64,000 nt of DNA from an uncultured Bacteroidia bacterium (GTDB taxonomy: Bacteria > Bacteroidota > Bacteroidia > JAFLBG01), in contig CAZQIC010000004.1 of assembly GCA_964593555.1 (NCBI GenBank), positions 23,689 to 87,688 of the forward strand, given 5' to 3'. The notes under the pieces are model-generated. The model made no database searches, was not told the DNA's origin, and worked only from the letters and a program-made list of their open reading frames with translations. The translations under genes were made by a program, and so were the position numbers. Within the stretch, counting starts at the first letter, position 1, and each line of letters begins with the position of its first letter. Shown here piece by piece: positions 14,282 to 23,029 of this stretch.

Positions 14282-15133
14282 CTATTGATCTTGAGCTAAA
14301 ATGTATTTTACATACATTGTATAAACTCCAGGTTGTGCGTAAGCATCAGCGTTAGAGATCAATGTAGTAGCAGCACCAGCAGCAACAACTGAAGCAGCTG
14401 TATTATTAACTGCAGTAGCAGCATCGTGTGCAGGGAATTTTGCAGGTAAACCTGGAACAATTCTGTAATCCATTACATAGTAATAGTCACTTGTTACACC
14501 AGTCTCTAACAAATAGCTTCCACCAGCAACTGAACAACCAGCAACGGTAGTAGAACCACCAGCGATGTATTTTTCAGAAGCTGTAGCAGCGTTTGAAGAT
14601 AATGGAGGATTGTAAGGAGTAGCGTTGCTTGGGCAATATACTAAGTTATCACTAGCAATAGTGTTAGCTGTAGTACGGATTGCGAAAGGATCGCTATAAT
14701 CACTTTCTGCAGCTGTCATAGAACCAGCGCAACCAGCGATTGTAGGGTTTCCAGGGAATTGGTGTAACTCAAGGGATGTTAAAGGAATCTCGTCAACCTC
14801 GTTAACACCAATTGATGTTCCTTCGTATTGAACTTGATTATCCCAAAGGTAGTCACCTACGTTGCTTTGAGAAAGGCCTGCAGCCCAAAGATCCCAAGAT
14901 ACTGTAGCACTAACCTTCAAAATTGTAGCTCCGTATTTTGTAATACCAGAGTAATACTCATTAATTTCATCAAATGTAAAGTCCAATTGCTCAGGGCCTT
15001 CCATTTTAAGTTGCAAAATAGGCTGCAAATCCATTGTAATTGTGACATTTTTTTCGTCGTTTAACTGCGCGAATGCAGTAGACGTGGCAGCCACAGCTAC
15101 AACACAAGCCGCTGATCTTAGATACTTTTTCAT
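14282..15133 (-). CDS. Secreted Ala/Thr/Ser/Gly-rich protein, candidate structural subunit of the 14282-22913 locus (paralog of 22164..22862)
   Basis: 283 aa with an SPI-type signal ...VAATSTAFAQ. It shares LDFTFD, SGIT..GAT.L, W.L, GCAG, MDYRI.P and a C-terminal PGVY...V motif with the 249-aa protein. It has its own promoter and a strong terminator. Confidence 0.7.
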   Translation of the reverse strand: MKKYLRSAACVVAVAATSTAFAQLNDEKNVTITMDLQPILQLKMEGPEQLDFTFDEINEYYSGITKYGATILKVSATVSWDLWAAGLSQSNVGDYLWDNQVQYEGTSIGVNEVDEIPLTSLELHQFPGNPTIAGCAGSMTAAESDYSDPFAIRTTANTIASDNLVYCPSNATPYNPPLSSNAATASEKYIAGGSTTVAGCSVAGGSYLLETGVTSDYYYVMDYRIVPGLPAKFPAHDAATAVNNTAASVVAAGAATTLISNADAYAQPGVYTMYVKYILAQDQ

Positions 15134-15158
15134 AGTGGTCGTTTTTAGTTTAACAATA

Positions 15159-15188
15159 CAAATATAACTGATTAATTGACAAAAACAA
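15159..15188 (-). promoter_or_regulatory. Bacteroidota sigma-A type promoter for the 283-aa subunit-like gene
   Basis: On the minus strand, TTG (15188-15186), a 19-nt spacer, then TATATTTG (15166-15159) are an exact fit to TTG-N19-TAnnTTTG. The -7 box ends 25 nt upstream of the ATG at 15133. Confidence 0.55.
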
Positions 15189-15252
15189 GTAAAATGCTGT
15201 TTTTAATGGGAATTTAATTGGTTTTTACGTTGAGAAAAGGCAATTGTTACGT

Positions 15253-21700: not shown

Positions 21701-22148
21701 CAGTCAATTCCCATTTGCTCTGTTTTTCTCTAATCACGTAAAAACTCGCAACAGCAATTGGTGTGCTGTCTTTTTCCAACACGTATGCATTGATCAGGTA
21801 CTTGGTGTTGCCTTTAATTTTTCCGTAAGGAATTATTCTAACCGGTAAAAAAATACTGTCACCTGTTTCAAGTGTATATAATTTGGCTCTGGAACTAAGT
21901 ACTTTCCATGATGGTGGATAAGCAACTTCAATTGAAACACTGAGTGGTTTGGTGCCCTTGTTATCTAGGCGTAAAGTTTTTGAAATTATTTGCCCCTCTT
22001 TAAGTTCGTAAGGTATGGTGTCAAATTTCGCAACTATTCTTTTTGTGCTGTCTTTCCCAAATACTTGGGCCGCAATTCGTTGAGAATGAAAAGCACCGCA
22101 AAATAGGATGAAAAATAAAATTGTTGAATGTTTGCTTAATCTCCACAT
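18786..22148 (-). CDS. 1120-aa outer-membrane protein: N-terminal beta-sandwich domains, large beta-barrel-like core, two CarboxypepD_reg-like domains, C-terminal SPOR domain
   Basis: Signal peptide is FFILFCGAFHSQRIAAQ. The N-terminus has the L.L.N.G..P..V pattern (ISKTLRLDNKGTKPLSVSIEV; FQLGIINSGNEDQELLLDF). The central ~500 aa show alternating aromatic/polar composition rich in Y, F, N, S, G and R. Residues ~800-960 (VIGVDKMEVLTNVKGRASIKNIAMGKYPIYVF; GIKITAINGKQISTLTEKDGSFSFYVPYGKFTL) look like CarboxypepD_reg domains. The C-terminus LRYTVQIGAFQKP...VRICAGTFDSEGAAAIEKENLVRVGFPGAYVTAYF is a classic SPOR pattern. Confidence 0.65.
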   Translation of the reverse strand: MWRLSKHSTILFFILFCGAFHSQRIAAQVFGKDSTKRIVAKFDTIPYELKEGQIISKTLRLDNKGTKPLSVSIEVAYPPSWKVLSSRAKLYTLETGDSIFLPVRIIPYGKIKGNTKYLINAYVLEKDSTPIAVASFYVIREKQSKWELTVEPSEKIYFLNNENTSSFQLGIINSGNEDQELLLDFENFRDKLLLMDTTEKIISKVLTQLTLKPNQDTTFKYKVKYINGLRNFRRVDIDNHKPTSQSESKMYTLYAKTSEPKARHSTVHQKNKKIDFLKLGDEYKANPYGYSYFPLIFDANITNILGGQPIMNLNLRGSTFLDNGASLNYFSQLFFTNNYYTNQYLLGSSYYVGYYDKKYQIDFGDIGGLGAGSFSSSGRGIAVKYIINKRHTVGASYTKSRRLFLPPTREAFSTFYNFRPSFGNFSIGFTRRIQHNLSLSSNFIKIGSSFKVAKNQTVSLGGVIAAHRSTLATNSFRRTGFNLSTGYSGTYLESRRLKFNANIYYMSKLFDPYNNGEMWSCYGNGSYKISNKLNLQANSFYNKRESFYLSGILPMTTFKNYRNAANIGIKINDNYVTPGLFYNVTMINTRAYHSRGMNLNFGNYNYETNRLLSNSILTGYNREIGERPIRDYFFFQYFFLFRYRTVSANFRYSYGNVSALNVDILGTRSPQSFGTSLNYQYQFKNTHFVLQHFLSHSYYSVLKRHSINYTPELYYYTNSGWRLRIALNYNSARTDASIARLEASSTGLVLPETGPVTTRGFNMLFGARKEFGIPIPYSKKKFYDLDFVAFIDLNGNKKKDGNEYSLENVVIGVDKMEVLTNVKGRASIKNIAMGKYPIYVFSLADLGGYFPYVDEELEVVKNRKDTAIVYVPFVKGIKIYGKVVVERETAAKNLERPLDLSGIKITAINGKQISTLTEKDGSFSFYVPYGKFTLNMDENILGDRFSLLQNNIELNLDRNTENLFITFFVIEAKRKIISKRFDANGNLIQGGGPNGPMIDRVAQANAEAANVRPYPTWDVAKDALLKKFEDLTKTKGLRYTVQIGAFQKPLNPKVFDGMKQMGYERIDNNFVRICAGTFDSEGAAAIEKENLVRVGFPGAYVTAYFDGKPITLEAAKLKKK

Positions 22149-22163
22149 AAATGATCAGAGTAT

Positions 22164-22862
22164 TTACAAATCTTCTGACAAACAAAACCTCACGTTCAAT
22201 TGATAAACTCCTGGCTTAAACGCAAAGGTTGGTAATATTCTATAGTCCATTATAAAACTGTATTCTCCGTAATTTGTAAGGTAACTTCCGGGCCTGTTTA
22301 CATTTGTGCCAGCGCATCCGCTTGGTCCAAAGTCAAAGCCGGGGCTGTCAACAATATCAAGTGTTTGATTGATGTTCATGAGTGTATTAAAACCTGTGCC
22401 AATCAGTGGAGTATTACACGCATTACGCACTCTAATTTGCATAAGATCGACAGTTGGATATGGAGGGCCGGGATTACCATAATCTGTAATTTGTTCCCAC
22501 TCGTTTATTGCGAATACTCCGCCATTATCAATGTTAGCATGTAATTGCCAACGGCATGGTGTTACAGGAACAGCAACTTCGGCAACGATAAGTCTCAGTA
22601 AGGTAGCTCCATTAATAGTAATCCCACTTACAAATTTTCCAAAAGAATCAAATGTAAAATCTACGTTCGCTGCAGAACTCATCAGGTAAACTGAGCCGCT
22701 GGAAACATCTTCACAGTTTGAGGTGGGAGAGGGCGTACATGCAGGCTGTGCAAACGCGCTTGAATACGAAAGACAAAGGATAGGAAAAATAAAGCAGGCC
22801 TTTACCTTTATAAAATATAAGCGGCTTAATGCGTCTGTTACGAGTTTTTTTAAGGGGATCAT
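22164..22862 (-). CDS. Secreted subunit-like protein, paralog of 14282..15133
   Basis: The ORF track begins at 22913. The ATG at 22862 gives MIPLKKLVTDALSRLYFIKVKACFIFPILCLSYSSAFAQ (signal). It shares VDFTFD, SGITINGATLL, W.LHA, GCAG, GSYL, IMDYRILP and a C-terminal KPGVYQLNVRF with the 283-aa protein. Its stop lies 16 bp before the 1120-aa gene. Confidence 0.65.
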   Translation of the reverse strand: MIPLKKLVTDALSRLYFIKVKACFIFPILCLSYSSAFAQPACTPSPTSNCEDVSSGSVYLMSSAANVDFTFDSFGKFVSGITINGATLLRLIVAEVAVPVTPCRWQLHANIDNGGVFAINEWEQITDYGNPGPPYPTVDLMQIRVRNACNTPLIGTGFNTLMNINQTLDIVDSPGFDFGPSGCAGTNVNRPGSYLTNYGEYSFIMDYRILPTFAFKPGVYQLNVRFCLSEDL

Positions 22863-23029
22863 ACTCACAATACAGCTAAATGCTTTAGTTAAAACAACCA
22901 ACACAACTCGCAACCAATAAATTCTTCAAAGGCAATTATTGAAGATTTTTAAGGACACTAATAACTACTAAAGTAAGAAAATTAATTGAAAACGTGAAAT
23001 TTGAGTGTTTTATTAGAAAAGGTTAATTT

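Follow-up and report, generated by a model that had tools for sequence, protein, structure and literature searches.

A conserved Bacteroidota operon that probably encodes a chaperone-usher-like assembly pathway for TLP-1-type pili

The described structures closest to the system considered here are the TLP-1a/b fibrils, which were found by cryo-electron microscopy (cryo-EM) of filtered pond water (Tsinghua Lotus Pond; Wang et al., PNAS 2024, PMC11494351). Each is an 8-nm helical homopolymer with a 15-Å acidic channel, built by donor-strand exchange in which the N-terminal beta1 strand of protomer n+4 completes the immunoglobulin-like (Ig-like) fold of protomer n (PMC11494351). The authors obtained no match in their own mass spectrometry or metagenome, reported no species, gene context or machinery, and guessed that the fibrils were “uncharacterized bacterial pili” (PMC11494351). 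Here, a locus of six genes, A to F, was analysed in a 64,000-nt stretch of contig CAZQIC010000004.1 from an uncultured Bacteroidia bacterium, referred to below as the window. Gene coordinates are positions in the window, and loci of other genomes are labelled L001, L002 and so on. Our reading, which is held with reasonable but not full confidence, is that these genes specify a chaperone-usher-like route for assembling TLP-1-type pili at the surface of a Bacteroidota cell. An earlier note on this DNA had pointed to six minus-strand genes, and all six open reading frames (ORFs) were recovered at the places it gave (Table 1). It had also drawn a parallel to chaperone-usher (CU) pili, which is strengthened here by a PapD-like E, a FimD/PapC-like B, the membership of F in a donor-strand-exchange family and the conservation of the synteny.

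Several known systems share part of this set of components. With CU pili (type 1 Fim, P pili Pap and archaic Csu) the locus has in common Ig-like pilins and N-terminal donor-strand exchange, the latter seen in TLP-1, a two-domain periplasmic chaperone fold (E), a large barrel with N-terminal and two C-terminal sandwiches (B), and a presumed first subunit without a donor strand, as in tip adhesins (A). It differs in that all components stay below the Usher, PapD and Fimbrial thresholds of Pfam, and in that some lineages with the genes add peptidoglycan-binding modules. An usher has an N-terminal domain, a 24-strand barrel with an internal plug and two C-terminal domains, whereas B has two N-terminal domains and no plug visible in its model; moreover, a CU rod is one chain, whereas the TLP-1 tube consists of four chains as a result of n+4 donation (PMC11494351). 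The Gram-positive WxL clusters (PDB 9I1Y / 9I25) likewise combine two paralogous secreted beta-rich proteins with one WxLIP-like protein. However, they are without an outer-membrane part and are not known as fibre producers, their WxLIP has a DUF916-DUF3324-transmembrane layout whose C-terminal helix is missing from E, and F and A have no similarity to the WxL domain (PF13731) that is detectable by sequence comparison. The Pam pili of the Candidate Phyla Radiation (CPR), a parallel recent discovery that belongs to a different family, are donor-strand-exchange pili with PapD/FimC-like chaperones in the operon and were identified from cryo-EM density; their chaperones are membrane-anchored, their hosts are monoderm, an usher-like barrel is absent and the pilins are reported to be CPR-specific (bioRxiv 10.64898/2026.03.03.709456). 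Neither TLP nor WxL is mentioned in that paper (bioRxiv 10.64898/2026.03.03.709456). Type V pili (FimA/Mfa) resemble the proposed fibres as Bacteroidota surface filaments that use strand exchange. Type V pilins are made as lipoprotein precursors, undergo maturation by a protease and use a C-terminal strand as donor, whereas F and A have no lipobox and no FimA/Mfa match and the predicted donor strand of F is N-terminal.

The identification of the fibre subunit comes from F. A profile of 40 F homologs matches PDB entries 9ikk_A “TLP-2” (E 8.8e-57) and 9ikj_A “TLP-1” (E 1.1e-55) over the full length, with query residues 24-284 aligned to residues 2-236 of the chains. In pairwise comparison, F is 35% identical (E 4e-40) to the sequence read off the 9ikk alignment. 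By these alignments F is homologous to the protomer of the TLP-1a/b fibrils over its full length, although with an identity of only ~35% the two are related proteins rather than one and the same. Entries 9IKJ and 9IKK, of 16 chains each, apparently correspond to the TLP-1a/b fibrils described in the CryoSeek paper (PMC11494351). It can be observed that the cleavage site, the N-terminal donor-strand segment and the C-terminal strand of TLP-1a/b are conserved in F. The signal peptide is predicted to be cleaved before Q23, and the TLP-1 models start exactly at that site, residue 2 of the models corresponding to residue 24 of F. Residues 24-44, which align with the first residues of the models, are the predicted donor strand. 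Within the family V30, D35, Q37, P38, L40 and L42 are invariant, and the segment NVTITMDLQPILQL near the N-terminus, with its six invariant positions, belongs to the most conserved parts. It is a compact family without annotation, with 751 clusters at 90% identity and, among 1.84 billion representatives, only 108 at 50%. No Pfam match was found for F or for 40 family members, the latter scanned at E up to 10. F is a predicted major pilin of the TLP-1 family. The paper on TLP-1a/b gives no organism, gene, operon or machinery; here the F family lies in an E-F-A-B operon of Bacteroidota.

This operon became visible when the F profile was compared with species-representative genomes, at least 201 of which encode a relative; the 80 best loci were analysed, with their ORFs labelled by family hidden Markov models. 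Almost all of these 80 belong to Bacteroidota, namely Flavobacteriales, Bacteroidales and Chitinophagales/Sphingobacteriales, and the highest identity among them is 64%. Cultured carriers in this set are Polaribacter uvawellassae SLMDC-22, Flavicella sediminum ALS 84 and Pseudotenacibaculum sp. In nearly every locus that is not cut by a contig end, the genes stand on one strand in the order E-F-A-B, and such joint occurrence in nearly all complete loci is more than chance. Conservation of the gene order outside this genome had been named as a check of the six-gene set: the synteny is conserved, but as four genes. The exceptions are the window and L001, a relative of 62% identity, where the order is A-B-C-D-E-F, an atypical rearrangement of the common one. 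Freshwater metagenomes supplied the nearest relatives found for TLP-1 itself, at 51-55% identity, and these too show the (E)-F-A-B arrangement.

Some irregularities in this distribution were also recorded. In the closest freshwater TLP-1 relatives E and F are separated by a gap of 0.9-1.6 kb (L106 7058-7931, L115 6340-7931), and the available upstream sequence of L092 and L112 contains no recognised E; the gap may hold an extra gene or reflect a moved E. Three typical operons carry labels outside Bacteroidota: “uncultured Bifidobacteriaceae” (L019), “Comamonas sp.” (L033) and “Chlorobiota bacterium” (L030). The first two labels are probably errors of binning of metagenome-assembled genomes or of labelling, while the Chlorobiota locus could be real.

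The nature of E was approached through its AlphaFold2 (AF2) model, with a predicted local distance difference test (pLDDT) of 84.4 and a predicted template modelling score (pTM) of 0.70, in which a signal peptide and a disordered Pro/Ala linker are followed by two beta-sandwich domains. In a Foldseek search of the PDB the best match was the WxLIP of E. faecium (9i25_C, E 5e-13; also 9i1y), the entry 9i25 being titled as WxLIP bound to a long WxL protein. After WxLIP, most of the top 50 matches are CU chaperones aligned over both domains and ~250 columns (CfaA, FimC, Caf1M, PapD, DraB, CupB2, YadV, CsuC and FaeE), with E-values from 2e-10 to 3e-8 and template modelling (TM) scores by target of 0.48-0.59. 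In the model, E has two Ig-like domains in the PapD arrangement, which bears out the PapD-type fold proposed for this 318-aa protein. Comparison of the E family with five Firmicutes WxLIPs by hhalign gave 97.6% (E 2.6e-12) over 232 columns and both domains, and by this profile alignment E is homologous to the Gram-positive WxLIP (DUF916-DUF3324). Against the Pfam WxLIP_PGBD model (DUF916), E itself scores E 2e-5 and 24.9 bits, below the 27.3-bit cut-off, and it also has a sub-threshold match to the MSP domain. Among its relatives, at E up to 0.1, WxLIP_PGBD is matched by 40/40 (best 2.5e-7), the MSP domain by 29/40 and PapD_N by 8/40 (best 9.8e-5), while the Pfam scan of E itself gave no PapD_N match.

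More generally, the Pfam and NCBIfam scans of A to F placed only the OmpA-like domains of C and D above threshold, and none of the six proteins reached the threshold for CU, type V pilus, curli or type IX secretion system (T9SS) families. Readings as a type V pilus, T9SS or curli set were set aside for lack of family matches in these scans. The absence of any such motif had been stated correctly by the earlier note. E does, however, have recognisable kin in the WxLIP family.

E has no C-terminal transmembrane helix, its sequence ending ...EAADLEFKVE with a beta-strand up to residue 317, and so should be a soluble periplasmic protein. Its most conserved stretch (residues 196-214) comprises the last strand of domain 1 and the hinge, the strand 202-209 following a long loop of lower pLDDT (178-201); G196, P199, G202, F203, G204, Q209, N210, P211, P212, N213 and V214 are invariant or nearly so in the family. 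In PapD-type chaperones, the corresponding place is occupied by the F1-G1 loop and the G1 donor strand. Residues 196-214 are accordingly worded here as a candidate G1-like donor strand. AF2 models of WxLIP also predict a strand or hairpin that completes the WxL sandwich (PMC10599100). Taken as a whole, the model makes E a predicted pilin chaperone. In searches of the PDB by sequence, domain 1 of E alone gave no match with a single sequence, and its profile reached only E 0.15 to WxLIP, so that the link to WxLIP needed Foldseek and hhalign. Matches of the E profile to synaptotagmin C2 domains (E 7e-5) were taken as generic beta-sandwich similarity and dismissed because Foldseek and hhalign point elsewhere.

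A proved to be a second, more specialised relative of F. The two proteins are 23% identical (BLASTP E 7e-7) and their families align by hhalign at 99% (E 3.8e-18); by this measure they are true, though distant, paralogs, as the earlier note had supposed. In the profile alignment a gap in A falls exactly at the F segment DEKNVTITMDLQ. Mature A proteins start with Q-x-x-C-G-x-V, are ~10-12 residues shorter than F ahead of the shared DFTFD motif and contain four Cys that are invariant across the family. An ORF of 249 aa exists as claimed, but it begins at a TTG (22913); translation from the ATG at 22862 yields a protein with a normal signal peptide and a length near that of the L001 ortholog, and this is probably the true start. 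Fused “A” genes (421-461 aa) occur in six loci and in no fewer than 13 of the clusters formed at 50% identity. Read residue by residue, the fusion in L010 has an A domain joined through ~10 linker residues to an entire F-like unit that retains the N-terminal donor segment, and the layout of the others was deduced from length and the location of the F-like match. A separate F gene still stands upstream in the loci with such fusions. Engineered donor-strand-complemented fusions have been used in structural work on pili, and the natural fusion mirrors them. This speaks for a strand of the F type as the one that occupies the groove of A, in which case A would be the first, distal subunit. Judged from its sequence, A is probably a minor pilin, a distal tip or cap subunit. 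The fusion also resembles a self-complemented tip-adaptor module.

For B, the AlphaFold model (pLDDT 80.5) gives two N-terminal sandwiches (N1-N2), a barrel, two C-terminal sandwiches (C1-C2) and, after a disordered linker, a beta-alpha-beta module. This is the layout expected from the earlier note, of which only the SPOR assignment of the last module is weak (Pfam E 0.016 and 16 bits, with a cut-off of 21; PDB 1x60 E 0.06). The top Foldseek matches in the PDB are to FimD (9fy9_D, E 1.2e-12, 814 columns; 3rfz, 9fxs, 9bog and 9fx8), and PapC (7lhh, 7lhg, 6cd2) is also ranked ahead of TonB-dependent receptors and porins, the usher matches covering E-values from 1e-12 to 3e-7. B is, by the fold of its model, an usher-like outer-membrane protein. 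C1-C2 have sub-threshold Pfam matches to CarbopepD_reg_2 (E 9e-5) and SpaA (E 1e-4). Among 67 full-length homologs of B, N1-N2 are present in all 67, C1-C2 in 66 and the whole N1-N2-barrel-C1-C2 core in 66, with a SPOR tail on 10.

Further observations concern the ends of B. Foldseek matches of N1-N2 are tandem PapD-like/ASH-type modules (CEP192 SPD-2, RbmA and ciliary ASH proteins), and B may carry a chaperone-like module of its own there; as the comparison of N1-N2 with the E family by hhalign is weak (only 18-43%), a duplicated chaperone module was not adopted and is left as a hint. N-terminal extensions of 550-800 aa occur in the B homologs of L002 (8001-12695), L003 (8001-12338) and L067 (11487-16010), the last being the cultured Polaribacter uvawellassae. 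In L003 the extension consists of many copies of a ~33-aa repeat (QDSINTAVAAQQKAQFRADSTRVAQAKILADQIA) and is coiled-coil-like. Homologs with such long extensions have no SPOR tail, and the coiled-coil extension may be an alternative route for spanning the periplasm or for anchoring. The B homolog of L003 is split (8001-13220) into ORFs of 1445 aa and 260 aa by a frameshift, pseudogenisation or an assembly error.

On the basis of homology, fold and gene context, we infer the assembly steps, the order of the subunits, the role of C, D and the SPOR-like tail, and the function of the fibre, which is probably adhesion. The six proteins would be exported by Sec and cut by signal peptidase I. In the periplasm, E would keep the pilins F and A foldable by inserting its G1-like strand (~196-214) into the groove of their incomplete Ig-like fold, and the resulting complexes would be received by the periplasmic sandwiches of B. 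Having the groove without the donor strand, A would enter B first and become the distal tip. The F subunits would follow, the N-terminal strand of each newcomer displacing the strand of the chaperone from the subunit before it. Outside the cell, four chains would pack into the 8-nm tube with its 15-Å channel. Only in the lineage of the window would the SPOR-like tail of B, C and D be added, probably tying the machine to peptidoglycan.

Several points weigh against this assembly scheme. In E, no obvious counterpart of PapD Arg8/Lys112 and no matching invariant basic pair could be found when conservation was read by eye. For B, the usher matches have low TM-scores (FimD 0.23-0.39, PapC reaching as low as 0.20), no Pfam Usher (PF00577) match appears at E up to 1, and no plug-sized insert is evident in the strand list of the model barrel. 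Homology of B to ushers by sequence was tried and rejected, since hhalign gave 4.5% for 61 B-family sequences (window B and 60 homologs) against a thin alignment of 7 ushers (FimD, MrkC, PefC, FedC and others). With a fold match and no sequence link, B is usher-like in architecture and not demonstrably a member of the usher family. Donation from protomer n+4 in TLP-1 also makes four separate chains (PMC11494351), and an 8-nm tube cannot pass a barrel of the size of B, so that a four-chain output would require four pores working together or chains that join one another once outside. Finally, archaeal cannulae are donor-strand polymers that assemble without chaperones (PMC12518558).

The last point leads to the main rival reading of the same genes, in which the fibre assembles by itself, F being secreted through B as a simple pore and E serving as an envelope adaptor or adhesin. 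We regard it as unlikely. It would accord with the existence of chaperone-free polymers such as the cannulae (PMC12518558), with the published role of WxLIP as an adaptor that binds the wall and host surfaces rather than as a chaperone (PMC10599100), and with the lack of detectable sequence homology between B and ushers. On the other hand, E has neither a membrane anchor nor the reported WxLIP motif, yet it has the full two-domain chaperone fold, its strongest conservation lies at the G1-like strand and it is the first gene of the conserved operon; insertion of a WxLIP strand into a partner sandwich has itself been predicted (PMC10599100), and 9i25 is titled as a WxLIP-WxL complex. Homology of E to WxLIP would also suit a non-filamentous surface complex, a diderm counterpart of the WxL clusters in which monomers or small oligomers of F and A are held by E, with B as an outer-membrane anchor. 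This is considered improbable, given that two members of the F family have been seen as long helical fibrils (PMC11494351), that F and A lack detectable WxL similarity and that E should be soluble, having no anchor. The possibility that F and A are WxL-domain proteins had been entertained after W-x-L triplets and a C-terminal G-x-Y...L motif were noticed, and was dropped when hhalign gave 2% and 0.4% and Pfam no WxL match; this comparison was by sequence and used five Firmicutes WxL loci, whose 7 WxL domains make a thin profile. Type V pili and T9SS are the known routes to surface filaments in Bacteroidota, and the locus could be read as a diverged form of the former or as cargo of the latter. 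This would fit the phylum and a partial resemblance of C and D to the C-terminal region of the T9SS protein PorE, far below cut-off, but is the least credible reading and seems very improbable indeed. Polymerised type V pilins, reportedly described by Shibata and co-workers in 2020, use a C-terminal donor strand in a protease-mediated exchange. No T9SS C-terminal domain or FimA/Mfa match was found in A to F with Pfam and NCBIfam, the signal peptides are type I-like with Gln at +1 and no lipobox, and the donor strand of TLP-1 is N-terminal (PMC11494351), opposite to the type V end.

A chaperone-usher-like pathway for TLP-1-type pili is thus the reading preferred here. It admits a wider, speculative extension, to which we would give only a small chance: that E-F-A-B is the link which makes CU chaperones and Gram-positive WxLIPs one ancient family, that TLP-1 pilins are structural homologs of WxL domains and the WxL complexes of Firmicutes are also donor-strand assemblies, and that B is an independent or extremely diverged usher which, as a multimer or in clusters of four, spins a four-chain hollow tube. 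We know of no usher with such a geometry.

The earlier description of the locus as an undescribed surface structure stands in part. A fibre of the F family was solved in 2024 as TLP-1a/b, whereas its host, operon and machinery were not found in the searchable literature. There, TLP-1a is mentioned only in its authors' own papers, the reference protein A0A2M8AA21 is not cited elsewhere, and no account of the operon turned up there under WxLIP, or under usher, PapD-like and donor strand together with Bacteroidota/Flavobacteria. E-F-A-B is probably the missing assembly machinery of TLP-1 fibres and a new chaperone-usher-like class of pili. Orphan fibres would in this way be assigned to a phylum and to a conserved operon of four genes, with a candidate mechanism for their assembly, and Bacteroidota, of which chiefly type V pili and T9SS are known, would gain a CU-like route that standard CU family models miss; genome annotation now labels all these genes hypothetical. 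Furthermore, the Gram-positive WxLIP is tied by homology to a soluble, pilus-chaperone-like periplasmic protein, which bears on its own role, and a mechanistic question is raised as to how a four-chain tube is built at an outer-membrane pore. Since cultured carriers exist (Polaribacter uvawellassae, Flavicella sediminum and Pseudotenacibaculum sp.), genetics is feasible.

Table 1. Coordinates of the genes, domains and signals of the locus (window positions) and of A + F-like fusions in other loci
Feature	Position	Strand	Description
A	22164-22913	minus	ORF of 249 aa counted from TTG
A, shorter start	22164-22862	minus	~232 aa from ATG at 22862
B	18786-22148	minus	1120 aa
B N1-N2	21315-22037	minus	two periplasmic beta-sandwiches, residues 38-278 (38-140, 146-278), DSSP of model
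B barrel	19824-21305	minus	~26 strands, residues ~282-775; count read from DSSP segments
B C1-C2	19236-19805	minus	prealbumin/CarboxypepD_reg-like sandwiches, residues 782-971 (782-875, 877-971), model
B SPOR-like module	18792-19040	minus	residues 1037-1119, beta-alpha-beta in model, after disordered linker
C	17792-18673	minus	293 aa; periplasmic sandwich and OmpA_C-like domain, predicted peptidoglycan-binding; accessory
D	16254-17795	minus	513 aa; C-terminal OmpA_C-like domain, translationally coupled to C; accessory
E	15253-16209	minus	318 aa
E domains	residues ~70-209 (domain 1), ~219-317 (domain 2)	minus	AF2 model
E candidate G1-like donor strand	15568-15624	minus	most conserved stretch, residues 196-214, GIIPVFGFGVYIFQNPPNV
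F	14282-15133	minus	283 aa
F N-terminal extension, predicted donor strand	15002-15064	minus	residues 24-44, LNDEKNVTITMDLQPILQLKM; aligns with first residues of TLP-1 models; boundaries inferred
F promoter, probable Bacteroidetes-type	15159-15188	minus	TTG-19 nt-TATATTTG, read in sequence
F intrinsic terminator	14228-14264	minus	hairpin -23.3 kcal/mol, z -6.57, then U9
A + F-like fusions	L010 11012-12397, L011 10501-11826, L013 4131-5459, L014 10588-11949, L015 1827-3152, L016 4010-5335		
A + F-like fusions, further sequences			P0286, P0293-P0296, P0299, P0301, P0302, P0304, P0305, P0309, P0312, P0313

The two remaining genes encode proteins with OmpA domains, in agreement with their first description as OmpA_C-like (Pfam OmpA, E 1.5e-13 for C and 1.3e-10 for D), and C has in addition a partial sub-threshold match to the C-terminal region of PorE and CHU_0125. 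Canonical E-F-A-B loci contain neither of these OmpA genes; D-like genes occur only in L001, L010, L011 and L014, and lie upstream of E in three of these loci. As both the OmpA genes and the SPOR tail are rare across loci, the core consists of E, F, A and B, and peptidoglycan binding is an accessory of certain lineages. Anchoring to peptidoglycan, which had been put forward as a defining feature, is therefore abandoned as such, with C and D absent from the canonical loci and a SPOR tail on few B homologs; in the lineage of the window, to judge from their domains, C, D and the SPOR tail of B probably do tie the machine to peptidoglycan.

In the window the genes follow each other in the order A-B-C-D-E-F. 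A and B are separated by 15 nt, and the overlap by which C and D were said to be coupled is present, with a length of 4 nt (17792-17795). Guanine-cytosine content is flat across the window at 34-40%, and so nothing marks the locus as foreign. All six signal peptides, read by eye, end before Gln (AFA|Q, AA|Q, LLA|Q, LFS|Q, VFS|Q and AFA|Q). Gln at +1 is the usual pattern of signal-peptidase-I substrates in Bacteroidetes, and its presence in all six proteins argues against lipoprotein processing.

Transcription signals were read around F. Upstream of the gene, a TTG (15186-15188) is followed after 19 nt by TATATTTG (15159-15166). The promoter consensus of Bacteroides and Flavobacterium is TTG/TAnnTTTG (-33/-7), which we take the site before F to fit, rather than that of sigma-70. 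The consensus promoter claimed for F is kept in this sense: F probably has its own promoter, of the Bacteroidetes type and not of the sigma-70 type. The strong terminator claimed for F was confirmed by folding (Table 1). A promoter and terminator of its own suit the most abundant (major) subunit. A scan for sigma-70 promoter and terminator consensus sequences found a number of sites near the shuffled expectation and missed the strongest terminator of the region, the very one that folding confirmed; its negatives are not trustworthy here, and the scan, being unsuited to Bacteroidota promoters, was dropped.

As for the neighbouring genes, a gene for a tail-specific protease of family S41 (Tsp/CtpA-type) immediately precedes A on the upstream side in the window (23030-25129) and in L001 (5008-7104), and does not adjoin the canonical E-F-A-B loci inspected (L002 and L003). 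Just downstream of F, the window encodes a Cys-rich protein of 363 aa with no family on record (13069-14160). Its gene is also found in L084 and L085, and in L001 it is not next to the operon.

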